NCBI GenBank assembly: GCA_964451985.1
Contig: CAYVKB010000002.1
Location: forward strand, 32,240 to 96,239
From: an uncultured Fimbriimonadales bacterium
GTDB taxonomy: Bacteria; Armatimonadota; Fimbriimonadia; Fimbriimonadales; GBS-DC
Direction of reading: 5' to 3'
Length of the DNA stretch: 64,000 bases
This document shows, piece by piece, positions 4,978 through 15,045 of this stretch. The position numbers and the translations under genes were made by a program. The notes beneath the pieces were generated by a model, which saw only the letters and a program-made list of their open reading frames with translations, was not told the DNA's origin and did not search any database. Each line of letters begins with the position of its first letter. Position 1 is the stretch's first letter.

Positions 4978-6279
4978 TTGGAGAGCTACAAAATCATCGG
5001 CGGAACACCGCTTACAGGCGCAGTGACGATTAGCGGGAGCAAAAATGCAGCGTTGGCACTGATGGCGGGCGCATTACTGATTGAAGGCGAGGTGATTCTG
5101 CACAACACGCCGCAGATTGAAGACGTGTTCACGATGGTCGCCCTGATGCAGGGGCTGGGTGTGCGGGCGGAATGGCGCGGCAATACCCTGTATCTAGATA
5201 CGCGCGAGCTGAGTCACGCGAAGCCGAACCCGCAGCTGGTGAACCGCATGCGCGCCTCGTTTTATATTTTTGGGCCGCTGCTCGCCCGACTGGGCTACGC
5301 GCGGATGCCCCATCCCGGTGGGTGCCAGATTGGCAGCCGACCCGTGAACTTCCACATCAATGGGCTGCGGGCACTGGGCGCACAGATTCATCAGAACGGC
5401 AACTGCTACACGGCGCAAACGCTGGGGCTGACAGGCGCGCGAATTTATCTGGATATGCCCAGCGCGGGTGCAACCCAGCAAATCATGACCGCTGCTGTGT
5501 ACGCTAATGGGCTGACCACCATTGAGAACGCTGCGATGGAACCTGAAGTGGTGAACCTCGCCGATTTCTTGAATGCGGCGGGCGCACGCATCGAGGGTGC
5601 AGGCACCAGCACGATTTATATCCAAGGCGTCTCTAAACTCACACCGCGTGCGGAGTTCTCCGTCATCCCCGACCGTCTGGAGGCAGGTACGTTCGCCTTA
5701 GCCGCCGCCATCACGCTGGGCGAGGTGACTTTGGAGAAAGTGCTGCCTGAACACCTGCACGCGTTGTTGGCGAAACTGCGCGAGGCGGGCGTGAGCATTA
5801 CCGAGCGCGAGACCAGTGTCACGATACGCGCCACAGAACGTCCCAAACCGCTCGACATCCGCACAATGCCCTATCCCGGCTTCCCTACCGATTTACAGCA
5901 GCCCATGTGCGCCCTGCTCGCCCTCGCCGACGGCGCATCGAAAGTGCTGGAGACCATCTACGAGAACCGCACGCAGCATGTGCCCGAATTGCAGAAGATG
6001 GGCGCAGACATCACCGCCGAGGGGCGCACTATCCTGATTCGCGGCGTGGAACGACTGAAAGGCGCGCGTGTGCGGGCGACCGACCTGCGCGGTGGGGCAG
6101 CCCTCGTTGTTGCCGCGCTCGCGGCGCACGGCGAGACCGAAATCGAGGAAATCAGCCATATCGACCGTGGTTACGAACTGTTGGAAGACAAACTGCGCGC
6201 GCTGGGCGCATCGATTCAACGCATCACACCCTACGCGCTTACCGCAACCCTGCACGAAGAGACAACACGCAAAACGTGA
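4978..6279 (+). CDS. murA: UDP-N-acetylglucosamine 1-carboxyvinyltransferase
   Basis: 433-aa ORF (TTG start, AAGGAGG upstream): GGTPLTGAVTISGSKNAAL...GGCQIGSRPV...RGGAALVVAALAA. Confidence 0.95.
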   Translation: MESYKIIGGTPLTGAVTISGSKNAALALMAGALLIEGEVILHNTPQIEDVFTMVALMQGLGVRAEWRGNTLYLDTRELSHAKPNPQLVNRMRASFYIFGPLLARLGYARMPHPGGCQIGSRPVNFHINGLRALGAQIHQNGNCYTAQTLGLTGARIYLDMPSAGATQQIMTAAVYANGLTTIENAAMEPEVVNLADFLNAAGARIEGAGTSTIYIQGVSKLTPRAEFSVIPDRLEAGTFALAAAITLGEVTLEKVLPEHLHALLAKLREAGVSITERETSVTIRATERPKPLDIRTMPYPGFPTDLQQPMCALLALADGASKVLETIYENRTQHVPELQKMGADITAEGRTILIRGVERLKGARVRATDLRGGAALVVAALAAHGETEIEEISHIDRGYELLEDKLRALGASIQRITPYALTATLHEETTRKT

Positions 6280-6281
6280 CT

Positions 6282-7289
6282 ATGTTCCGGCTGAACACTG
6301 AACTGGGCGTGGATTTGGGCACGGCGAACCTGCTGGTATACCAGCGAGGGCGTGGTATCGTGCTGCGTGAGCCGTCCGTGGTCGCCATCTCACAGCCCTC
6401 CGGCAAGGTGCTGGCGGTCGGCGAGGAAGCCCGCCTGATGTTGGGGCGCACGCCCGGTAACATCACCGCCGTCAAGCCTCTCGTGAACGGCGTGATAGCC
6501 GATTACACCATCACGCTGGAGATGTTGCGCTATGTGATTAATAAGATTCTCGGCAAGCGAAGGCTGTTCGCCCCGCGGATGCTGGTGTGCGTGCCTTCCA
6601 GTGCGACGGATGTGGAGCGCCGCGCTGTGCAACAAGCTGCCAAAGAGGCGGGCGCAGGCGAGGTGCATCTGATTGAAGAGCCGATGGCGGCGGCAATCGG
6701 CGCGGGACTGCCCATCAGCCAGCCGGGAGGCAACATGGTGGTGGACATCGGCGGTGGCACGACCGACATCGCTGTCATCTCGCTGGGCGGCATCGTGATT
6801 AGCCGCAGTATCCGCGTCGCGGGCAACAAGCTCGACGAGGCGATTATCCGCCACGTGCGCCACCGCTACAACTTGATGATTGGCGAGCGCACTGCGGAGG
6901 AAATCAAAATCCGCATCGGCTCAGCGTATCCGCTGCCGCAGGAACTCACGATGGAAGTGCGCGGGCGCGACCTGGTAGAAGGCTTACCTCGCACGGTGGT
7001 CATCCATTCGGAAGAGATTCGCGAGTCGCTGACGGAGCCGGTGAACCAGATTGTGGAGAAGGTACGCTCCGTGCTGGAAGAGACACCTCCCGAACTCGCT
7101 TCGGACATTATCGAGCGCGGAGTCGTGCTGACGGGCGGCGGCGCGCTGCTGCGTGGCTTTGATAAACTGCTTCAGCATGCGACGGGCATTCCCGTCTACA
7201 TCGCGGAAGACCCGCTCTCCTGCGTCGCGATTGGCACTGGGCGCGCCTTAGAAGAGATGGACGCGATTGTGAAAGCGGCACAGTATTAA
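6282..7289 (+). CDS. mreB: rod shape-determining protein MreB
   Basis: MFRLNTELGVDLGTANLLVY...DIGGGTTDIAVISLGG. The ORF-track entry 5907..7289 is an upstream extension that overlaps murA. The ATG at 6282 lies 2 nt after the murA stop. Confidence 0.95.
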   Translation: MFRLNTELGVDLGTANLLVYQRGRGIVLREPSVVAISQPSGKVLAVGEEARLMLGRTPGNITAVKPLVNGVIADYTITLEMLRYVINKILGKRRLFAPRMLVCVPSSATDVERRAVQQAAKEAGAGEVHLIEEPMAAAIGAGLPISQPGGNMVVDIGGGTTDIAVISLGGIVISRSIRVAGNKLDEAIIRHVRHRYNLMIGERTAEEIKIRIGSAYPLPQELTMEVRGRDLVEGLPRTVVIHSEEIRESLTEPVNQIVEKVRSVLEETPPELASDIIERGVVLTGGGALLRGFDKLLQHATGIPVYIAEDPLSCVAIGTGRALEEMDAIVKAAQY

Positions 7290-7336
7290 ACGCTTCCTAA
7301 ACCTCTCTGGGGATATGCTCAGGTACACTTAGCGGT

Positions 7337-8689
7337 ATGCGCATCCGAGTTCTCAAGTTTGGCGGCACGAGCGTGGACACTCCGGAACATCGCCATATGG
7401 CGGCGCGGAAGGTAATACAGTGTATCGAGTCGGGCGCGCGCCCTGTGTTGGTAGTCTCGGCGATCGGCAGGCGTGGCGCGCCCTACGCCACCGATACGCT
7501 GGTGGAGCTGCTGACGCAAATAGACCCCACCATCCCGCCTGCACCGCGCGAGCGTGACCTGATGATGGCGTGCGGCGAGATTATCTCCACTGTGATTATG
7601 GCGCAGACGCTGCGCACGCTGGGCTACGCGACCGTCGCCCTGACTGGCAATCAGGCGGGCATCATCACCGATAATGAGTTCGGCAACGCGCGGATTTTGG
7701 AGATTAACCCCGAACCGATTTTGCGCTGTTTGGAGCAGGGCTGGATTCCGATTGTGGCGGGGTTTCAGGGCGTGACTCGCTCCGACGCGATTTTCCAGCG
7801 CGGTTCGATTACCACACTGGGGCGCGGAGGCAGCGACACCACCGCCGCTGCGCTGGGCGCAGCCCTGAGGGCGGAAGCCGTTGAAATCTACACCGATGTG
7901 AATGGCGTCAAAACCGCCGATCCCGATTTCGTGCCCGACGCCATTACCCTGCCTGAAGTGAGCTACGAGGAGGTGGCGGAGATTGCCCACCAAGGCGCGC
8001 GCGTGCTGCACCCCCGCGCCGCCGAAATCGCGATGGACTACGGCATCCCGTTGTGGGTGAAATGTACCTTTACCGACGAAGCGGGTACGCGCGTCGCCGC
8101 CCATGCCAACGGGCAACGGCGCATCACAGGCGTCACCCACACGGGCAAACTGGCGTATTTGAGCTTCTATATCCCCTACCCGGAACACAAAGCACAACTG
8201 GAGCTGGAGATTTATCGTCTGATGGCGCAGGTAGGCGTGAACCTGCAGGGCGTAGGCGTGGACGAGGAGGGGCTGGGCTTCGCTTTTCCCCGCGAACATT
8301 GGCATACCGTGCGCACGGCGTTAGATGGGCTGGTCGTACCCCTGGGCGAGCCGAGCGCGTTCTACCTGTTCCAGTTCGGCGAGGTGCCCAGCCAGCTGTG
8401 CCAGATTCAGCGCGATATGCTGCATAAGGCGGGGCTATCCGAATGTGTGCGCACGATTACAATCGCCATCGCCGAGGGCTGCACGATGGTCTCACTGATT
8501 GCCGACGGCTATAGCCGCCAACCGGGTGTATTCGCCGAGCTGCACCAAACACTGATCGAGGCGGGCATCCCCATCTGGCAAACCGCCGACTCGGAGCTGT
8601 CGTTATCGTGCATCATTCCCGAAAGCGAAGTGAATAAGGCGGTGAAGTTAATCCATGACCGATTCGCACTGGACGCCGTCGCCCGATGA
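7337..8689 (+). CDS. lysC: aspartate kinase
   Basis: MRIRVLKFGGTSV...VVSAIG...TTLGRGGSDTTAAALG, followed by a C-terminal ACT-like region. Confidence 0.9.
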   Translation: MRIRVLKFGGTSVDTPEHRHMAARKVIQCIESGARPVLVVSAIGRRGAPYATDTLVELLTQIDPTIPPAPRERDLMMACGEIISTVIMAQTLRTLGYATVALTGNQAGIITDNEFGNARILEINPEPILRCLEQGWIPIVAGFQGVTRSDAIFQRGSITTLGRGGSDTTAAALGAALRAEAVEIYTDVNGVKTADPDFVPDAITLPEVSYEEVAEIAHQGARVLHPRAAEIAMDYGIPLWVKCTFTDEAGTRVAAHANGQRRITGVTHTGKLAYLSFYIPYPEHKAQLELEIYRLMAQVGVNLQGVGVDEEGLGFAFPREHWHTVRTALDGLVVPLGEPSAFYLFQFGEVPSQLCQIQRDMLHKAGLSECVRTITIAIAEGCTMVSLIADGYSRQPGVFAELHQTLIEAGIPIWQTADSELSLSCIIPESEVNKAVKLIHDRFALDAVAR

Positions 8690-9017
8690 GTCGGAGGAGG
8701 TTCGCCCGCCCGACCTACCCCCGACGCCCCCGCTGCCGGAGCCACCGAAGGTTGAGTTTCAGCGTCCCACTCTACCAGGCAGTCAGCCGTCGCCCACGTT
8801 CCAGCGCAACACCCGCGCGGTAAGCCTTGCGTTCTCCATCGGTTTCGCGCTGGCGGGTCCTGTGATTTTGGGCGCACTGGTCGGCTACTGGCTGGATGGT
8901 CGGTTCGCCACATCCCCCACCTGGACGATGATTCTCACGCTGCTGGGCATGGGCGCGGGGCTGACGCAGCTGATTCGCATCGTAAACAAGCTGAACCAAA
9001 TGGAGGATAAGCCGTGA
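8655..9017 (+). CDS. AtpZ/AtpI-family small membrane protein with a Pro-rich N-terminus
   Basis: C-terminal half FSIGFALAGPVILGALVGYWLDGRF...TLLGMGAGLTQLI resembles the AtpZ (putative F0F1-ATPase subunit) family. Overlaps the lysC 3' end by 35 nt. Confidence 0.6.
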   Translation: MTDSHWTPSPDESEEVRPPDLPPTPPLPEPPKVEFQRPTLPGSQPSPTFQRNTRAVSLAFSIGFALAGPVILGALVGYWLDGRFATSPTWTMILTLLGMGAGLTQLIRIVNKLNQMEDKP

Positions 9018-9394
9018 GCGTGATGGAGAACCCCACGCTGCTGTGGCGTTCGGTAGGCAAGTGGACGGCGATTCTCACAGCAGTTGGCGTGGGGGCGAGC
9101 CTTGCGTTGGGCGCGTGGCGATTGGGCGTGGGCATGCTGCTGGGCGTGGGTGCGTTGGGCTGGGCAATGGGTTTCTTTGTGCTAATCACGCGCTTCTTCG
9201 CCCCGCAGCAAAACCCTCTATTCCCTCGCCTCCTGATGCTCAGCAACCCGCTCAAGTACCCCATGCTGCTTGTGTTCGCCTACCTTGCCGTGCGCGGAGG
9301 CGAGGTGATGACAATAGGCTTTGCAATCGGCGTCGCGCTGCCCTTAGCCGTGATTACAGGGCTTGCCATCCGCGAAGCGTTCACCACGCGATAA
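9014..9394 (+). CDS. ATP synthase protein I-like membrane protein
   Basis: 126 aa, four hydrophobic helices, GTGA start/stop overlap with the preceding AtpZ-like gene. The family call is tentative. Confidence 0.45.
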   Translation: MSVMENPTLLWRSVGKWTAILTAVGVGASLALGAWRLGVGMLLGVGALGWAMGFFVLITRFFAPQQNPLFPRLLMLSNPLKYPMLLVFAYLAVRGGEVMTIGFAIGVALPLAVITGLAIREAFTTR

Positions 9395-9692
9395 AACTAC
9401 TCACTACCGCACCCCCCAACCAAAGCGTGAGGTACGCCGTGAACCCAAACCGCAGCCAACGCTTCACAAACACAGGATTCTGACGCCGGTACCACTCCGC
9501 AAGCCCCACCGCCATCCCCAGCGTGAGGAACTTCACCACGAAAAACGCCCCCCAACTAAGCTGAATGAACCAGTTCATAATTGGATTGAACTCGGTTGCA
9601 TACCCGCGTGTAATCAACCAGTAGGTACTCATTGAATCGGCAAGCACCAGCAGAATCAGTCCCCATGTTTCCTTGTGGCGCATGGTGGGCAT
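9381..9692 (-). CDS. small membrane protein (DUF5658-like)
   Basis: 103 aa: LADSMSTYWLITRGYATEFNPIMNW pattern and 3-4 TM helices. Confidence 0.5.
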   Translation of the reverse strand: MPTMRHKETWGLILLVLADSMSTYWLITRGYATEFNPIMNWFIQLSWGAFFVVKFLTLGMAVGLAEWYRRQNPVFVKRWLRFGFTAYLTLWLGGAVVSSFIAW

Positions 9693-9708
9693 TCCAGCAA
9701 CTTTCGTA

Positions 9709-9726
9709 CCACAAGGTATAATCGCC
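9709..9726 (+). repeat. left copy of exact 18-bp direct repeat CCACAAGGTATAATCGCC (contains TATAAT 9717-9722)
   Basis: Read directly. Identical to 11703-11720. Confidence 0.9.
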
Positions 9727-9736
9727 GCGAGACTGT

Positions 9737-10645
9737 ATGCGGAATAGCAAAGCGGCGAAAACCAGAAAACTCATCGCCTTCGGCTGGTACGGCGGCAAGT
9801 TCAGCCATCTGCAGTGGTTACTGCCGTTGCTTCCGCCCACTTATCACTACTGCGAGCCATTCGGCGGCTCAGCGGCAGTGTTGCTAAATCGCATTCCCGC
9901 CCCTGTGGAGACTTACAACGACCTCGACGGAGAAGTGGCGAACTTTTTCCGTGTGCTACGCGACGCCCCTGACGAGCTCATTCGCCGAATCGCACTAACC
10001 CCCTTCTCGCGTGAGGAGCTGCGCCTTGCGTGTAGCGCGGAAAAGTCTAACGACCCCATAGAGCGAGCGCGACGATTTTATGTACGCGCCCGTCAAACGC
10101 GCACGGGGCTTGCTCAGACGGCGACGCCTGGCAGATGGGCATACTGCGTAGGAACCAGCCGCGCGGGTGTTGCAGGCGCGGTCTCTCGCTGGTTCGGCGG
10201 AGTGGAGGCACTGTTCCATATCGCCGACCGATTGCTCGGCGTGCAGATTGAAAGCCTCGACGCTCTGGAAGTGATACGGAAATATGATAGCCCCGACACA
10301 CTGTTTTATTGCGACCCTCCGTATGTGCATGGGGCGCGTGGCGATGTGCATGCCTACGCTTACGAGATGAGCGACGCCGACCATCGGAGGCTGGCAGAGC
10401 TGCTACACACTGTGCAGGGCAAAGTGGCGTTGTCAGGCTATCGCTGTGAGCTAATGGATAGCCTTTACTTGGACTGGTATCGCACTGACGCGCCGCCGCG
10501 CATCTGCCACTCCGTCAAACAAATCCGACAGGAGGTGTTATGGACGAACTACGACCCACAGGAAGCTCTCCAGCAGAACCAGAAAGCCCAGAAGCTATCC
10601 TCGAACGGTGCTACCGCGACGCTGCCGCTCGAGTTGAGCCACTGA
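9737..10645 (+). CDS. Dam-family (D12 class) N6-adenine DNA methyltransferase
   Basis: FGWYGGKFSHLQWLLPLLP, EPFGGSAAVLL, YNDLDGEVANFFRVLRD, FYCDPPYVH. Confidence 0.9.
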   Translation: MRNSKAAKTRKLIAFGWYGGKFSHLQWLLPLLPPTYHYCEPFGGSAAVLLNRIPAPVETYNDLDGEVANFFRVLRDAPDELIRRIALTPFSREELRLACSAEKSNDPIERARRFYVRARQTRTGLAQTATPGRWAYCVGTSRAGVAGAVSRWFGGVEALFHIADRLLGVQIESLDALEVIRKYDSPDTLFYCDPPYVHGARGDVHAYAYEMSDADHRRLAELLHTVQGKVALSGYRCELMDSLYLDWYRTDAPPRICHSVKQIRQEVLWTNYDPQEALQQNQKAQKLSSNGATATLPLELSH

Positions 10646-11691
10646 TTGAAGATGAGCGGCTCAATCTGATTTGCTGCTACCTCACCAATCGTGCCCCCGC
10701 GCGGTTTCTCCTTGCCTGCCTGCTCGCAAAAGTGCATCAACCAACAGTTGACATCCGCAATCCATTCACTGAAATCGGAACAGACGACTGCTACTCAGGT
10801 CGTACTTACGATGAGCGGTATTTGCAAGTGTTTATTATGGAGCATAGTCTGCCACTCAACCGCACAACCGCATTTCTGACTCCTGCCTTTCGCACTTTCA
10901 ACCAACCTCTGCTTGTAGAGACAAAGCTGTCTGGGAAGCCTACCGTACTGTATGCCAGCCTGATTAGCCTGCTCCAAGATATTCAGAAAGGCGTGCATCC
11001 ACCGGAAGATTACCTGAAGGAAGCCTTGAGATTGCTCATCCAGATCCGTGATACCCAACAGCAAGCGATACAGGAGCGCCTTAGCCGCCTTGAGGGTGTT
11101 CACAAAGAACTTGGCACTCAACAAATTTTGGAAATCATATCGAAGCACCTGAAAATGCCACGTTCCAGTCGTCTACCTGTGTTGGTCATTGCCGCAGCTT
11201 ACGACACAACAAAAGAGTCGCTAAGTAAACACTACATGCGCTTACTGCCTCACACTGCTGCTGATAAACCTACTGATGTACTGGGCGACCTTGAAATAGA
11301 ACTATCAGGGCAAGGAATCCCATATATCGTGTACGAAGTCAAGGACAGAGTGATTACTCAGAGCGATATTCAGAATGCGCTTCTCAAGCTAAGCGAGCGC
11401 ACGGAACTACCTGCACAATATGCCTTCGTTGCTACCAAGCCGATACCATCCGCAGTCTATGAATACATCGAATCGATTAATCGCCAGCGGCTCGGTACAG
11501 AACTTCAAGCGTATGACTGTCTGGAATTCCTGAAGTATTTTTTACATTTATTTCACGAAAAGCGAACGCGGTTTCTTGACAGATATAAAGAGTTAGTACT
11601 CAATGAGCCAGCGAGTGCAGTAGCTCAGTCGTTGAAAGAGAAGCTGCTGGAGTTGATTGAGGAAGAGTTAACAGATGTCTCCTCCACTTAG
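10540..11691 (+). CDS. putative type II restriction endonuclease (uncharacterised, PD-(D/E)xK-like)
   Basis: 383-aa ORF directly coupled to the methylase. GGAGG lies 6 nt before ATG 10540. Candidate catalytic motif GDLEIEL...(14 aa)...YEVKD. Visibly AT-richer than its flanks. Confidence 0.5.
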   Translation: MDELRPTGSSPAEPESPEAILERCYRDAAARVEPLIEDERLNLICCYLTNRAPARFLLACLLAKVHQPTVDIRNPFTEIGTDDCYSGRTYDERYLQVFIMEHSLPLNRTTAFLTPAFRTFNQPLLVETKLSGKPTVLYASLISLLQDIQKGVHPPEDYLKEALRLLIQIRDTQQQAIQERLSRLEGVHKELGTQQILEIISKHLKMPRSSRLPVLVIAAAYDTTKESLSKHYMRLLPHTAADKPTDVLGDLEIELSGQGIPYIVYEVKDRVITQSDIQNALLKLSERTELPAQYAFVATKPIPSAVYEYIESINRQRLGTELQAYDCLEFLKYFLHLFHEKRTRFLDRYKELVLNEPASAVAQSLKEKLLELIEEELTDVSST

Positions 11692-11702
11692 TGATTGCTT
11701 TG

Positions 11703-11720
11703 CCACAAGGTATAATCGCC
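11703..11720 (+). repeat. right copy of exact 18-bp direct repeat CCACAAGGTATAATCGCC (contains TATAAT 11711-11716)
   Basis: Read directly. Identical to 9709-9726. Confidence 0.9.
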
Positions 11721-11726
11721 TCCGCT

Positions 11727-13235
11727 ATGGACGCCCGAACAATCTACCAGCACTTGGAGAACTGGCAGAAAGAGACTGCGTTATTAGGTTCTATTGCAGG
11801 CGTATTGGGCTGGGATCAGCGCGTTATGATGCCCGCCAAAGCCGCGCCCCATCGCGCGAACCAGCTAGCGCTGCTGTCGGGGATGATTCACCAGCGCGCC
11901 ACCGACCCGCGCATCGGCGAGTGGCTGCTCGAGCTGGAACAAAGCGACCTGACCCAGCCAGTGGATAGCGTGACCGCTGTGAACATCCGTCAGTGGCGAC
12001 GCGAATATGACAAACTGACCAAACTGCCCACCGAACTGGTGATAGAGTTCACGCGCGTCACCAGCCTCGCCGAAAAGGTGTGGGAGGAAGCACGCGAGGA
12101 GTCGGACTTCAGTCTATTCCAGCCTCATCTGGAGAAGATTGTGAGCCTTGTGCGCGAGATTGCTGAACGGCTGGGGTATGCAACCGAACCTTACGATGCA
12201 CTGTTGGACGAATATGAGCAGGGCATGACCGCGCAGGAGGTGGAGCGGCTCTTCGAGCCGTTGCGCCGCCACACGCCCGAACTGGTCGCGCAGATTCAGA
12301 GCGCCCCGCGCAAGCCGCATACCAGCATCCTGCGCCAACACTACCCTCGCGCCGCGCAGGAAGCCTTCTGCCGCCTCATCGCCGAGTCCATCGGATTCGA
12401 CTGGCAGCGCGGACGGTTGGACCCCACGGTGCATCCGTTCGCTACACGCCTTGCGCCGGGTGATGTGCGCATCACCACGCGCTACTATGAAGATTTCCTG
12501 AACCCGTCGCTGTTCGGCACGATTCACGAGCTGGGGCATGCACTGTACGAGATGGGGCTGCCCGAAGAGCACTGGGGAACTCCGATGGGTGCGTCGACCT
12601 CGCTGGGGATGCACGAGTCGCAATCGCGCATGTGGGAGAACTTCGTGGGGCGCAGCCGCGCGTTTTGGGAGTATTTCTATCCCATCGCGCAGCAGCACTT
12701 CGACACCCTCAAAGACATCTCGCTGGACGACTTTGTGTTTGCTGTGAACGCAGTGCAGCCCTCCACCATTCGCGTGGAAGCCGACGAGGTGACCTATAAC
12801 CTGCACATCATGCTGCGCTTTGAGCTGGAGCTGGCGTTGCTGCGGGGGGAGCTGCAAGTCGCCGACCTGCCCAGCGCGTGGAACGAGCGGTTCAAAGCCT
12901 ATATGGGCTTCACCCCGCCTAACGACGCTGAGGGCGTGCTACAGGATGTTCACTGGTCGGGCGGGATGATTGGCTACTTCCCGACCTATAGTTTAGGCAA
13001 CATCTACGCGGCGCAGCTGTACGAGGCGGCCGAGCGCGACTTGGGCGACCTACACGCGCAGTTCCGTAAGGGCGAGTTTATGCCGTTGCTGGAGTGGCTG
13101 CGTGAGAAGATCCATCAGCAGGGGCAACGCTACTCGGCAAAGGAATTGATTCAGCGCATCACGGGCAACCCGCCCAGTGCTGAGCCGCTGATTGCCTACT
13201 TCCAGCGAAAATTCATGCCCCTGTACGGGCTGTAA
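11727..13235 (+). CDS. carboxypeptidase Taq-type metallopeptidase (M32)
   Basis: HELGHALYE zinc motif, HESQSR, and typical M32 length. Start set at ATG 11727 (MDARTIYQHLENW). Confidence 0.9.
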   Translation: MDARTIYQHLENWQKETALLGSIAGVLGWDQRVMMPAKAAPHRANQLALLSGMIHQRATDPRIGEWLLELEQSDLTQPVDSVTAVNIRQWRREYDKLTKLPTELVIEFTRVTSLAEKVWEEAREESDFSLFQPHLEKIVSLVREIAERLGYATEPYDALLDEYEQGMTAQEVERLFEPLRRHTPELVAQIQSAPRKPHTSILRQHYPRAAQEAFCRLIAESIGFDWQRGRLDPTVHPFATRLAPGDVRITTRYYEDFLNPSLFGTIHELGHALYEMGLPEEHWGTPMGASTSLGMHESQSRMWENFVGRSRAFWEYFYPIAQQHFDTLKDISLDDFVFAVNAVQPSTIRVEADEVTYNLHIMLRFELELALLRGELQVADLPSAWNERFKAYMGFTPPNDAEGVLQDVHWSGGMIGYFPTYSLGNIYAAQLYEAAERDLGDLHAQFRKGEFMPLLEWLREKIHQQGQRYSAKELIQRITGNPPSAEPLIAYFQRKFMPLYGL

Positions 13236-13268
13236 TTACCAATTCCGCGTATAATCGTGTATAATATG

Positions 13269-13364
13269 GGTTGGCGAGGAGGTCCAGAACAGGCTCCTTT
13301 CCGGGCGACTTTCCTCACCAACCCCACCACACACGGGAGGCGCGGATACCCCGCCCGCGCCTCC
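13269..13364 (+). other. structured intergenic region (two GC-rich hairpins) downstream of tandem TATAAT boxes
   Basis: TATAAT at 13250-13255 and 13260-13265. Hairpin 1: GGTTGG.GAGGA...TCCTC.CCAACC (13269-13323). Hairpin 2: GGAGGCGCGG-9 nt-CCGCGCCTCC (13336-13364). Confidence 0.25.
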
Positions 13365-13455
13365 TGAAAAAACCATCGAGCGAGGCGTTTACCCTTAGGA
13401 CTGCCTTGAGAGTGCACAGGTTCCCACGCAAAACCGCTTCAGGTAAAATTTTCGC

Positions 13456-13809
13456 ATGGCGCACCCTCGCATCGTGGGGATGGATCCGTACATCGAAGCG
13501 CAAATCACGCCTGAGCGGATGACTTCCACAGTGATACCTCGCATCGTGGGGATGGATCCGTACATCGAGGCGCAAGCGTGGCGTGATTGCCACGCAGAGA
13601 TGATTTCAGGGATACGCGCATCGCTGACAACCCGGTTCGCGCCCAAGTACATTGCACGCATCGAGGAACAAATCTACATCGACGAAGGATATCACGACGC
13701 ACAAATGCGCGACCCTGACATCGCCCTCGAGAGGGTACGCCCCGGTACATCCCACACAGGTGGCGAAGTTGCTCTTGCTATTAAGCCGATTGAACCAGCC
13801 GCTGCCTGA
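13456..13809 (+). pseudogene. truncated DUF4058-family gene with an internal in-frame duplication
   Basis: PRIVGMDPYIEAQ...WRDCHAEMISGIR...PKYIARIEEQIYI...PDIAL matches the DUF4058 N-terminal pattern (GMDPYLE..W.D.H). Only 117 aa. A 39-nt segment is repeated at 13465-13503 and 13537-13575. Confidence 0.6.
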
Positions 13810-13821
13810 ACCTTTATCACG

Positions 13822-15045
13822 ATGAGCCGTCATACTCCACCACTGGCGCGTTGCTTAAGAATCGATTTTGACCGCGAGCGCTATGCCGTCGGCTTGATGG
13901 CAGGCACTTCGCTGGATGGGATTGACGCGGCACTGGTGCGCATCAAAGGCTCTGGCGACGCAATACAACTACAGACGCTGAGCACTCATCACAGCCCCTA
14001 CACGCCTGAGGAACGCAACGGGCTACTGCAACTAATCCATTTCGGCACAGTTGGCGACTTGTGCACGTGGGATGCTTATCTGGGGGAGCGGTTCGCGCAG
14101 GCGGCTTCGGAAGTAATCAATCTATATAGACACAACTCTCGTCATTCTGCGCGAAGCGAGGAATTGCTCACAGTTCACTTTATCGGTTCACACGGGCAGA
14201 CGGTGTGGCATGCACCCGACGGTAAATTGTTCAACCTACCCGCCCGCAACACGCTACAGATAGGGCAGCCCGACGTGATTGCCGCACGGCTGGGCGTGCC
14301 GGTGGTCGCCGACTTTCGCACGCGGGATATCGTGCATGGCGGGCAGGGCGCACCGCTCGTGCCTATCGTCGACTGGCTGTTGCTGCGCCATCCCGCAGAA
14401 CACCGCGTTGCACTGAACATCGGGGGAATGGCGAATGTAACTGTGCTGCCCGCTGGCGGCGCATCCGAAACGATTCTGGCCTTCGACACCGGACCCGGCA
14501 ACGCGCTTATCGACCGCGCTGTCCAGATTTACACGCAGGGAAAACAGACCTACGACAGAGACGGTAAGTACGCCGCAGAGGGCGAAGCAAACCCAATCGC
14601 TCTCGAACAGATGTTGAGTCATCCCTACTTCGAGCAATCGCCGCCGAAATCCACAGGGCGTGAGATGTTTGGGGAGGAGTATCTGAAGGCGATTATTGTG
14701 GCGTTCGAGATGGAACTCCGCCCTCTCGTGGCGACCCTGACCGAGTTCACAGCGCGCACCATCGCTGATGGGCTGAAACGGTTCGTGCTGCCCGAATATC
14801 CGATTCAGCGCATCATCGTATCAGGTGGCGGGGTGCATAACCGCACGCTGATGGCGCGCCTGCAAGCCCACCTGCCCAACATCGCCGTTGAGCTCTCGGC
14901 GCAGTACGGTATCGATCCCGATTTCAAAGAAGCGATTGCGTTCGCCGCACTGGCGGATAGGTTCCTGCAGGGCTTGCCTACTACCTATCCCAACACGACG
15001 GGCGTATGCAAGCCGTGCACGGCAGGCAAGTTGGCGTTGCCGTAG
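13822..15045 (+). CDS. anmK: anhydro-N-acetylmuramic acid kinase
   Basis: GLMAGTSLDGIDAALV...GSHGQTVWH...GGQGAPLVP...NIGGMANV...DTGPGN...PKSTGRE. Confidence 0.9.
   Translation: MSRHTPPLARCLRIDFDRERYAVGLMAGTSLDGIDAALVRIKGSGDAIQLQTLSTHHSPYTPEERNGLLQLIHFGTVGDLCTWDAYLGERFAQAASEVINLYRHNSRHSARSEELLTVHFIGSHGQTVWHAPDGKLFNLPARNTLQIGQPDVIAARLGVPVVADFRTRDIVHGGQGAPLVPIVDWLLLRHPAEHRVALNIGGMANVTVLPAGGASETILAFDTGPGNALIDRAVQIYTQGKQTYDRDGKYAAEGEANPIALEQMLSHPYFEQSPPKSTGREMFGEEYLKAIIVAFEMELRPLVATLTEFTARTIADGLKRFVLPEYPIQRIIVSGGGVHNRTLMARLQAHLPNIAVELSAQYGIDPDFKEAIAFAALADRFLQGLPTTYPNTTGVCKPCTAGKLALP
14141..14167 (+). repeat. short dispersed element GTCATTCTGCGCGAAGCGAGGAATTGC, in frame inside anmK
   Basis: Related copies at 29008-29030, 34656-34680, 50638-50656 (inverted) and 50681-50715. 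Confidence 0.45.

Follow-up and report, generated by a model that had tools for sequence, protein, structure and literature searches.

A restriction-modification cassette without a recombinase gene, flanked by a duplicated promoter core, is polymorphic at a carboxypeptidase locus in Fimbriimonadales

Introduction

Restriction-modification (R-M) systems are among the most mobile of prokaryotic genes; most have no mobility gene, and their movement is largely unexplained. Here we analyse a stretch of 64,000 nucleotides (hereafter the window) from an uncultured Fimbriimonadales bacterium (Armatimonadota; GenBank assembly GCA_964451985.1, contig CAYVKB010000002.1, positions 32,240 to 96,239), in which a two-gene R-M cassette, composed of a methylase gene (M) and a restriction endonuclease gene (R), lies between direct repeats that carry a promoter -10 box, just upstream of the gene for an M32 carboxypeptidase (M32). 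The closest kind of event on record is the insertion of R-M genes with a long target duplication (Nobusato et al. 2000, Gene 259:99; Furuta, Abe & Kobayashi 2010, NAR 38:2428, PMC2853133). The 2010 study looked for inserts that contain both R and M, are shorter than 20 kb and hold no mobility gene, with flanking repeats that correspond to a single copy at the empty locus and a duplication of more than 30 bp; some of its cases have a recognition sequence at the junction, and the word 'promoter' does not occur in it. It also hypothesised a life cycle of insertion, repeat use and release, which resembles the reading proposed below, and stated that evidence for the release and reinfection step was lacking.

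The event described here is of a kind already known for restriction systems, namely insertion of an R-M pair with target duplication and no mobility gene (PMC2853133). Its variant features are a short repeat placed on a -10 box, the use of one promoter repeatedly or over the long term across the order, the presence of all stages of decay, and a circularly permuted copy. For the enzymes themselves the reference points are SacI and EcoT38I (GRGCY^C), Type IIP restriction endonucleases that are paired with D12 adenine methylases. Illegitimate integration, whether homology-facilitated or double, was reportedly described in naturally transformable bacteria by de Vries and Wackernagel in 2002 and by Huelter and Wackernagel in 2008. 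SPDIR (bioRxiv 10.1101/2023.11.22.568220) likewise belongs to the illegitimate integration class of naturally transformable bacteria.

Results

Two genes lie between copies of a promoter core

The exact 18-mer CCACAAGGTATAATCGCC occurs in the window at 9709-9726 and 11703-11720 only, even when up to three mismatches are allowed, and two copies were found in 0 of 100 dinucleotide-preserving shuffles, which agrees with the view of the initial annotation that the repeat is not a product of chance. The 1,976 bp between the copies hold only two open reading frames (ORFs) of note, the methylase and a 383-aa ORF, and the cassette lies 3' of the -10 box and 5' of the start codon of M32. The M ATG (9737) is 10 nt past the left copy and the M32 ATG (11727) 6 nt past the right copy. 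All of these coordinates and spacings had been given correctly before, except that the right copy begins 11 nt, not 12 nt, after the R stop (TAG, 11689-11691). The features of the locus are as follows.

9381..9683, - strand: DUF5658 gene, the left neighbour, divergent from the promoter region (PF18902, 7.4e-15); adjoins M32 in all empty-site relatives
9696..9703, + strand: conserved upstream element AGCAACTT, 13 nt 5' of the -10 box, left of the left copy only
9691..9708, + strand: pair of single-nucleotide polymorphisms (SNPs), 9691 and 9708, directly left of the repeat; occupied haplotype A, A; empty haplotype G, G
9709..9726, + strand: left repeat copy CCACAAGGTATAATCGCC, with the TATAAT -10 hexamer at 9717-9722; presumed driver of M-R
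9727..9736, + strand: cassette-native 5' leader of M, gcgagactgt; GCGAG is common to the cassette at another locus, L006
9737..10645, + strand: M, D12-class N6-adenine DNA methyltransferase, 302 aa, DPPY motif (PF02086, 4.8e-20, 72.8 bits)
10530..10542, + strand: AGGAGG Shine-Dalgarno (SD) sequence (10530-10535) and R ATG, within the 3' end of M; invariant in six cassettes
10540..11691, + strand: R, SacI/EcoT38I-like PD-(D/E)XK Type II restriction endonuclease, 383 aa (from homologues, triad and fold)
11692..11702, + strand: cassette-native 3' tail tgattgctttg; GCTTTG and the following CCAC match the L006 tail 10/10
11703..11720, + strand: right repeat copy, with the -10 hexamer at 11711-11716, 10 nt before the M32 ATG
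11727..13235, + strand: M32 (Taq-type) carboxypeptidase, the displaced host gene (PF02074, 6.5e-186)

An ORF and family survey of the cassette detected no transposase, integrase or other recombinase gene in the insert, and no inverted repeat pairs its ends (left end GCGAGACTGT, right end GATTGCTTTG), in keeping with its earlier description as transposase-free. No further cassette copies were found within the window, and an Rfam scan of 8500-14000 returned no matches.

Empty and occupied alleles coexist in near-identical DNA

By exact-protein look-up of M32 we found an empty allele of the site on contig FMJZ01000786.1 (L001) of metagenome assembly GCA_900096875.1, where the M32 protein is identical, the gap from DUF5658 to M32 is 49 bp and the repeat is present as a single copy. 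In BLAST alignments, L001 1-4479 corresponds to window 5248-9726 and L001 4460-6435 to window 11701-13676 at 99.9% identity, and the two flank alignments overlap exactly by 20 bp, tgCCACAAGGTATAATCGCC. Window 9727-11720 is a 1,994-bp insertion/deletion polymorphism containing two genes only. Relative to the empty site, the duplicated stretch is these 20 bp with one mismatch, at window position 9708, which is A where the empty site and the right copy have G. The empty-site junction reads cgtgCCACAAGGTATAATCGCCtccgct; the left junction ends in CGCCgcgagactgtATG, the right junction is tgattgctttgCCAC, and tgattgctttgCCACAAGGTATAATCGCCgcgagactgt is the sequence expected at a circle or tandem junction.

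The assembly that yielded L001 also contains L002, a contig of 2,073 bp that matches window 9668-11740 at 100% identity, so occupied and empty alleles coexist in one sample. In an independent sample (SRR7473445, L051), the cassette and both flanks lie on one contig at 99.98% identity. The haplotypes are separated by 6 SNPs over 6.4 kb, and two of these (9691 and 9708) are within 36 nt left of the repeat: L002 and L051 carry A/A at these positions and L001 carries G/G, and a further contig, L052, has G at 9691 and ends at 9707. A metagenome scan with R returned only L002 again and one deleted allele, L042, and searches of the phage and IMG/VR collections turned up no relatives. The presence or absence of this recombinase-free R-M cassette, with its flanking promoter-core duplication, is a real polymorphism at the level of the population.

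A cassette about 15% diverged from that of the window is carried by a Logan contig from SRR27730018 (L003), whose start is exactly 30 nt (k-1) ahead of the cassette. A start there is expected if the SRR27730018 assembly graph branches there into an empty allele, and the M32 site may be polymorphic in that sample too.

The same promoter is empty, occupied or scarred in relatives

An M32 scan with one genome per species gave 18 Armatimonadota/Fimbriimonadales loci, at which five neighbouring proteins were mapped and the junctions written out. Empty sites with one promoter copy are present in eight species (L008, L009, L010, L012, L015, L016, L017 and L024); their consensus is AGCAACTTyCGnGCCAGAAGGTATAATCGCCTCGCT-ATG, with 1-3 differences per species. 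Together with L001 and its 99.9% identical flanks, they provide the orthologous empty site with a single 18-mer that the initial annotation had predicted. Occupied sites are those of the window, L003, L004 and L005, with L004 and L005 intact; L003 is a cassette-only contig that has the window's 18-mer at both ends and 12 + 2 nt of flank that do not differ from the window species. Remnants were found at four loci: an 839-bp deletion fuses M codon 61 to R codon 75 in L042, the same deletion is joined by a second lesion in L011, 512 bp are left between the repeat copies in L013, and in L014 all that is left is ~45 nt from the 3' end of R plus the right copy. The M32 tree distributes the occupied lineages over three clades, with empty ones in between.

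Every relative with the cassette at this site has the duplication (L003, L004, L005, L011 and L013); no relative carries the cassette here without it. In ~458 kb of related DNA, AAGGTATAAT was found only at this promoter, in the L006 cassette and once in L023, which, together with the presence of just two copies of the 18-mer in 64 kb, speaks against a generic promoter string, an outcome the initial annotation had flagged as fatal to its proposal. Identities between the window and clade C or clade D are 80.5% and 72.9% for M, and 84% and 81% for M32; the window and L003 cassettes differ by ~15%.

L004, L042 and L011 come from one species and form a series of stepwise decay, from the intact cassette through the single 839-bp deletion to a further lesion in R. 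A single 839-bp deletion in L042 cost M its 3' part and R its 5' part, and joint loss of M and R in one deletion is the route expected to avoid post-segregational killing. At L014 (4840-4990; clade D species KatS3mg016), AT-rich DNA has taken the place of the DUF5658 side, along with a minus-strand ORF of 316 aa that is unrelated and for which no Pfam match was found.

Other restriction genes occur nearby and at a further locus. The neighbourhood of the occupied site in L005 includes another restriction-related gene ~3 kb downstream (10259-11932), which codes for 557 aa and has N6_N4_Mtase, Mrr_cat and NA-iREase1 domains. A pair of M and R genes from the same family, though more distant (L043 2174-4158 and L044-L049; R ~48-52% identical), was found in at least 7 samples at a second fixed locus of other Fimbriimonadales, which lies between aminotransferase and PS_pyruv_trans genes. 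Promoter duplication at that locus was considered and rejected: M is SD-led there, and the ~110-nt stretches at each junction contain no repeat.

Repeat length and joints vary between lineages

The junctions of the occupied sites compare as follows.

Window and L003: left CCACAAGGTATAATCGCC, right CCACAAGGTATAATCGCC; exact repeat 18 bp
L004 and L011: left CCAGAAGGTATAATCCCC, right CAACAAGGTATAATCCCC; exact repeat 14 bp
L005: left CCAAAGGGGTATAAT + tctta, right CCAAAGGGGTATAAT + cgcgc; exact repeat 15 bp

The left joint C(G/C)CC|GCGA is common to the window, L003, L004 and L013, so their cassettes have one origin. In L005 the left joint falls directly after TATAAT, with the window joint 4 nt further on, and the leader is similar to the one in L007, whose cassette has an unrelated context. 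Protein trees give 100% support to the pair of window and L003 and 100% to their union with L004; L005, L006 and L007 are deep, unresolved branches, and monophyly of the M32-site cassettes has 11-29% support. The joints and trees suggest that the clade-D cassette (L005) is a second, independent integration, which would make at least two integrations into the same promoter. A single ancient insertion with many precise losses fits nearly as well, because host and cassette divergences scale roughly together.

On the right, the tail GCTTTG + CCAC (GCTTTGCCAC) is common to the window and L006 cassettes. This sequence moves along with the cassette, which would place the right junction of the M32 site within TGCCA(C), a microhomology to cgTGCCAC in the target. 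CCAC, the opening 4 nt of the right copy, may itself be microhomology brought by the cassette, in which case the strict target duplication would be only 14 bp; the candidate for it, AAGGTATAATC(G/C)CC, is the exact-match part of the clade C repeat. For clade D, CCAAAGGGGTATAATCGCG is a candidate reading of the empty site.

The duplicated segment is the -10-proximal part of the promoter

Both repeat copies contain GGTATAAT, a type of -10 box seen elsewhere 5 times in the window and 29 times in 175 kb of related loci. The upstream element AGCAACTT, conserved in 13/13 orthologous intergenic regions and with only two occurrences in the window, is single at the locus, and the duplication comprises the -10-proximal 18-20 bp only. 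No canonical -35 element was seen at either copy, a consensus promoter scan calls neither, and no terminator-like site was found between R and M32. As judged from sequence, the left copy would start transcription of M-R, giving a leader of ~7 nt that lacks an SD, and the right copy would leave M32 in its native near-leaderless arrangement, with 10 nt from -10 box to ATG; M32 would also be reachable by read-through from M-R, because no terminator follows R. The earlier proposal that the cassette had landed between M32 and its promoter and duplicated that promoter is supported by the empty site and by the -10 box in both copies, and has to be narrowed in one respect, as AGCAACTT was not duplicated.

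Within 11691-11726, a 12-codon extension (MIALPQGIIASA) that is in frame with M32 starts at a GTG overlapping the R stop (taGTGa). This frame is open in L004, begins with ATGA over the stop in L013, and is out of frame in L003; M32 could be translationally coupled to R through the extension, or the arrangement could be a coincidence.

The cassette encodes a D12 adenine methylase and a SacI/EcoT38I-like nuclease

M and R show a Type II R-M layout, with a methyltransferase motif and a PD-(D/E)XK endonuclease encoded on the same strand by overlapping genes. M had been called a Dam-type methylase. The adenine methylase assignment holds (PF02086, present in 120/120 M homologues among the matches listed, from 7,922 candidates at E <= 1e-60), whereas M is not a Dam orthologue, since it scores 65.6 bits against NCBIfam TIGR00571 dam, below the cut-off of 114.85.

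The second ORF, previously a nuclease candidate, is a SacI/EcoT38I-like nuclease according to its homologues, catalytic residues, predicted fold and gene pairing. Pfam and NCBIfam scans gave no direct match to the R of the window, and exact look-up of the 383-aa protein none either; more than 1,300 homologues were found, mostly ~374 aa long and nearly all with PF09566 (SacI family). Residues G249-D250 ... Y265-E266-x-K268, which form the PD-(D/E)XK triad, do not vary among 21 sequences with 40-64% identity. An AlphaFold (AF2) model with a predicted local distance difference test (pLDDT) score of 87 matches EcoT38I (7edb) with E 1e-10 and template modelling (TM) scores of 0.66/0.72, and plasmid homologues of R are annotated as 'restriction endonuclease, SacI family' and adjoin a DNA adenine methylase.

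Gene callers start the homologous R entry at a later GTG (319 aa; P0001, leading to L002). The 383-aa frame starts 106 nt inside M, preceded by the AGGAGG at 10530-10535, and CAGGAGGT..TATGGACGAA, the SD and ATG of R, is invariant in 6/6 aligned diverged cassettes; this invariance argues that the overlap is real and that translation of R is probably coupled to that of M.

The nuclease half is AT-richer than its surroundings, as had been noted: GC content is 0.44-0.50 in the R half, 0.59 in M and ~0.60 in the flanks, and GC at third codon positions is 0.49 in R, 0.67 in M and 0.67-0.77 in neighbouring genes. A deviation in GC and codon usage, suggested earlier as a check on the entire cassette, is therefore present in the R half and absent from the M half. 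The bias towards AT in R, relative to M and the flanks, recurs in all related cassettes examined, clearly long-resident ones included, so low GC is a property of the R gene and not a sign of recent arrival.

GAGCTC is mildly low in the window (5 observed against 12.6 expected), and its nearest occurrence to the junctions, at 9974, is inside M. We considered whether a SacI-type recognition site or cleavage defines the junctions and rejected this, as neither junction has GAGCTC nearby.

A circularly permuted copy is found at another locus

At L006, a related cassette lies between two other methylase genes, and an L006-type locus with the same junctions was recovered from another sample (L053, by look-up of P0133). 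The left end of the L006 unit is ...ccttCCACtgtaag|CAAGGTATAATtGCGAG... and the right end ...TAGaatgGCTTTGCCAC|tcgctcag...; when the right end GCTTTGCCAC is joined to the left end CAAGGTATAAT, the product GCTTTGCCACAAGGTATAAT is the contiguous window 20-mer 11697-11716. Homology between L006 and the window wraps exactly one repeat period, with the break inside the repeat at CCAC|AAGG, and the outer flanks match the window at chance level (3/20 and 5/20). Removal of the unit joins ATGTTTCATCTCCTTCCAC to TCGCTCAG... and restores an in-frame start (MFHLLPLAQSTP...), and the reconstructed ORF, MFHLLPLAQ..., is the downstream Eco57I-like methylase gene; the N-termini of distant Eco57I-like homologues are too variable to confirm this start. 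The L006 joints show 4 nt of identity (CCAC) and, at the left one, a 7-nt filler.

From these ends, L006 would be a circle that was excised at the M32 site and then reinserted through the 4-nt CCAC microhomology with the 7-nt filler. The break position needs no special enzyme, because only ~15 nt, from the R stop to the -10 box, can be opened harmlessly. A search via the downstream Eco57I-like methylase yielded no empty allele of the L006 site and no close relative.

In L007, the 8-mer AGCAACTT is present at 13-20, ~100 nt upstream of the methylase -10 box, in an otherwise unrelated left flank. The L007 unit starts with GAGGTATAAT and ends near ...CCAG, with the contig ending 3 nt later; it bears a faint resemblance to the clade-A M32 promoter (CCAGAGGTATAAT) split at the same position as L006.

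Other features of the window

Just 3' of the M32 stop, at 13250-13265, are two overlapping-phase TATAAT boxes 10 nt apart (gcgTATAATcgtgTATAATatggg), which may be a promoter for the downstream region. The M32-AnmK intergenic region contains a pair of 39-nt direct repeats (13465-13503 and 13537-13575), 97% identical, with starts 72 nt apart and 33 nt between them, also present in the empty-site contig L001. Their geometry resembles a two-repeat mini-array of the CRISPR (clustered regularly interspaced short palindromic repeats) kind, no Rfam match was found for the pair, and the repeat also lies within a 117-aa ORF with a repeated peptide (PRIVGMDPYIEAQ).

Several 6-bp palindromes are strongly under-represented in the 64 kb relative to Markov expectation: GGCGCC (8 observed, 57.7 expected), ATGCAT (0, 7.6), CCGCGG (8, 31.4) and AGCGCT (7, 24.4). 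This depletion suggests a history of several other R-M specificities in the lineage.

Discussion

Of the four criteria used for R-M insertions with long target duplication (PMC2853133), three describe this locus: the insert holds R and M homologues, its 1,994 bp are well under 20 kb and contain no mobility gene or other mobile element, and both repeats align to single-copy sequence at the L001 empty locus. The fourth does not, as the duplication is 18 bp exact, or 20 bp with one mismatch, and 14-15 bp in other lineages, compared with more than 30 bp. The two kinds of event are thus alike in the gain of R and M without a mobility gene, in a direct duplication that is single-copy in a close relative, and in a duplication length that varies between events. 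They differ in that the repeat here, at 14-20 bp, falls below the cut-off and coincides with a -10 element, of which the methylase and the displaced gene keep one each; that the same site is occupied in several clades; that a circularly permuted copy is present elsewhere; and that Armatimonadota are not among the published cases.

The resemblance to illegitimate integration in transformable bacteria lies in joints at 3-10-nt microhomologies, in filler (7 nt at L006) and in the lack of a dedicated recombinase; those events come from laboratory selections and usually involve long anchors or take the form of micro-indels, whereas here a natural 2-kb gain comes with target duplication. By this analogy, the joints look like microhomology-mediated illegitimate recombination. 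Campbell-type attachment-site (att) integration of prophages and islands shares with the locus an insert between direct core repeats, whose excision restores the empty site and gives a circle, and the permuted L006 copy is consistent with a circular intermediate; it differs in that no integrase is present here, the core is not fixed, and the target is a promoter rather than a tRNA gene or a conserved att site. At the level of the enzymes, R shares with SacI and EcoT38I the EcoT38I fold, PF09566 homologues, the PD-(D/E)XK triad and the same gene pairing on plasmids, and differs in that its identity to EcoT38I is only ~15% and that the window R falls below Pfam and NCBIfam thresholds.

Other classes of mobile DNA fit less well. 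Insertion sequences (IS) and transposons have no counterpart here to their terminal inverted repeats or transposase ORF, and the duplication is variable at 14-20 bp. As regards integrase islands, no integrase was found in or beside the cassette (window, L004, L005 and L051), and the target is a 49-bp intergenic promoter, with no tRNA scan made. As for integron cassettes, the 11 nt from R stop to repeat hold no hairpin-forming element, and a -10 box precedes M.

We consider it probable that this recombinase-free R-M cassette integrated by short-homology illegitimate recombination, that the -10 core was duplicated in the process, and that both alleles persist. Integration would be guided by short homology rather than carried out by transposition, with the right junction placed in a 5-6-nt microhomology between the cassette tail ...GCTTTGCCAC and the target ...cgTGCCAC, and the left junction in or just past the -10 region. 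Joints staggered on the target would duplicate 14-18 bp, GGTATAAT included. The left copy would then supply a -10 box for M, with R following by translational coupling, and the right copy would keep M32's own -10 box, with read-through into M32 also possible. Recombination between the copies would delete the cassette precisely, giving the empty site and a circle with one repeat copy, and L006 would be such a circle, opened at CCAC|AAGG and reinserted elsewhere with its captured -10 box.

Several points weigh against this reading. An assembly of both cassette alleles at very small k could create an empty-like path via the shared 20-mer, a worry countered by the distinct SNPs in L001 and L052 and by the eight empty-site species. 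The case for a circle is thin, with one robust example (L006/L053) and no empty allele found. The left joint CGCC|GCGAG is not what a crossover within L006-type promoter homology (TATAATtGCGAG) would be expected to give, and the L005 right copy shares 7 lineage-specific nt (CCAAAGG) with the target, a pattern that follows from neither a plain Campbell crossover nor the microhomology model; the L005 repeat needs staggered-break duplication or gene conversion. In sister clades the cassette is of long standing at the site, the L001 empty allele may be derived by precise deletion, and a possible co-divergence of host and cassette fits one ancient insertion followed by precise losses nearly as well.

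That alternative, a single insertion in the common ancestor of the clades with vertical descent since, is plausible, though we lean against it. All empty sites, L001 included, would then be precise deletions, and the identity of the copies within each lineage would reflect gene conversion or selection on two promoters, an account to which we give the same guarded standing. The host tree is compatible with the cassette topology, ((window, L003), L004) with L005 outside, the divergence of the cassettes scales with that of their hosts, and the window, L003, L004 and L013 have the left junction C(G/C)CC|GCGA in common; remnants in two clades bespeak long residence, and direct repeats are a known substrate for precise deletion. 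The price is at least 5-6 independent precise losses. Moreover, L005 has its left junction elsewhere and a leader resembling the L007 one, its cassette is no nearer to that of the window than are cassettes from other loci, both L005 copies share at least 3-4 lineage-specific changes (CCAAAGGGG), and the window and L003 copies are 18/18 identical despite the ~15% difference between their cassettes.

Use of one site in three clades, a 14-20-bp repeat within the size range of att cores, and the L006 permutation broken inside the repeat would all follow if the repeat were an att-like core recognised by a host or helper tyrosine or serine recombinase encoded elsewhere. We regard this as improbable: no integrase lies in or beside the cassette at any locus examined, the repeat length and end points vary by lineage (18, 14 and 15 bp), and the L006 joint, with 4 nt of identity and 7 nt of filler, is typical of illegitimate joining, its break position being explained by selection. 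Still harder to credit is a non-autonomous transposon mobilised in trans, with the repeat as a transposase-made target-site duplication. An insertion flanked by target duplication is what such an element leaves, and IS1630 of Mycoplasma makes 19-26-bp duplications (cited in PMC2853133); the cassette, however, has no terminal inverted repeats, its duplication length varies by lineage, the same site is reused, and there is one copy per locus with no extras in 64 kb. Finally, we give almost no credence to chance or generic promoter similarity without any insertion. Boxes of the GGTATAAT type do occur elsewhere at the frequencies given above, but the shuffles, the exact match to an empty site with an overlap confined to the repeat, and the near-uniqueness of AAGGTATAAT to this promoter in 458 kb refute it.

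Within the favoured account of short-homology integration, a further step can be contemplated, which we hold to be unlikely as matters stand: the cassette with one repeat copy may be a minimal recombinase-free mobile unit, a circle that has captured a host -10 box and homes to M32 promoters. If this were true, the -10 box in the circle would be both the methylase promoter and the sole attachment sequence. It would explain why one site is reoccupied in three clades with repeats matching each lineage, and why joining proceeds by microhomology where no M32-type site exists, as at L006. It would also represent the release and reinfection step of the virus-like R-M life cycle proposed by Kobayashi and colleagues.

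The locus offers a natural series at one site, from empty through intact with a perfect repeat and older with diverged repeats to deleted remnants, together with a permuted copy elsewhere. It indicates that the duplicated target can be a promoter core, so that a landing cassette would be expressed at once and the displaced gene would not be silenced, which would take away two clear obstacles to its establishment. Were the circular intermediate to prove real, release, as a step of the proposed R-M life cycle, would come within reach of a direct test.

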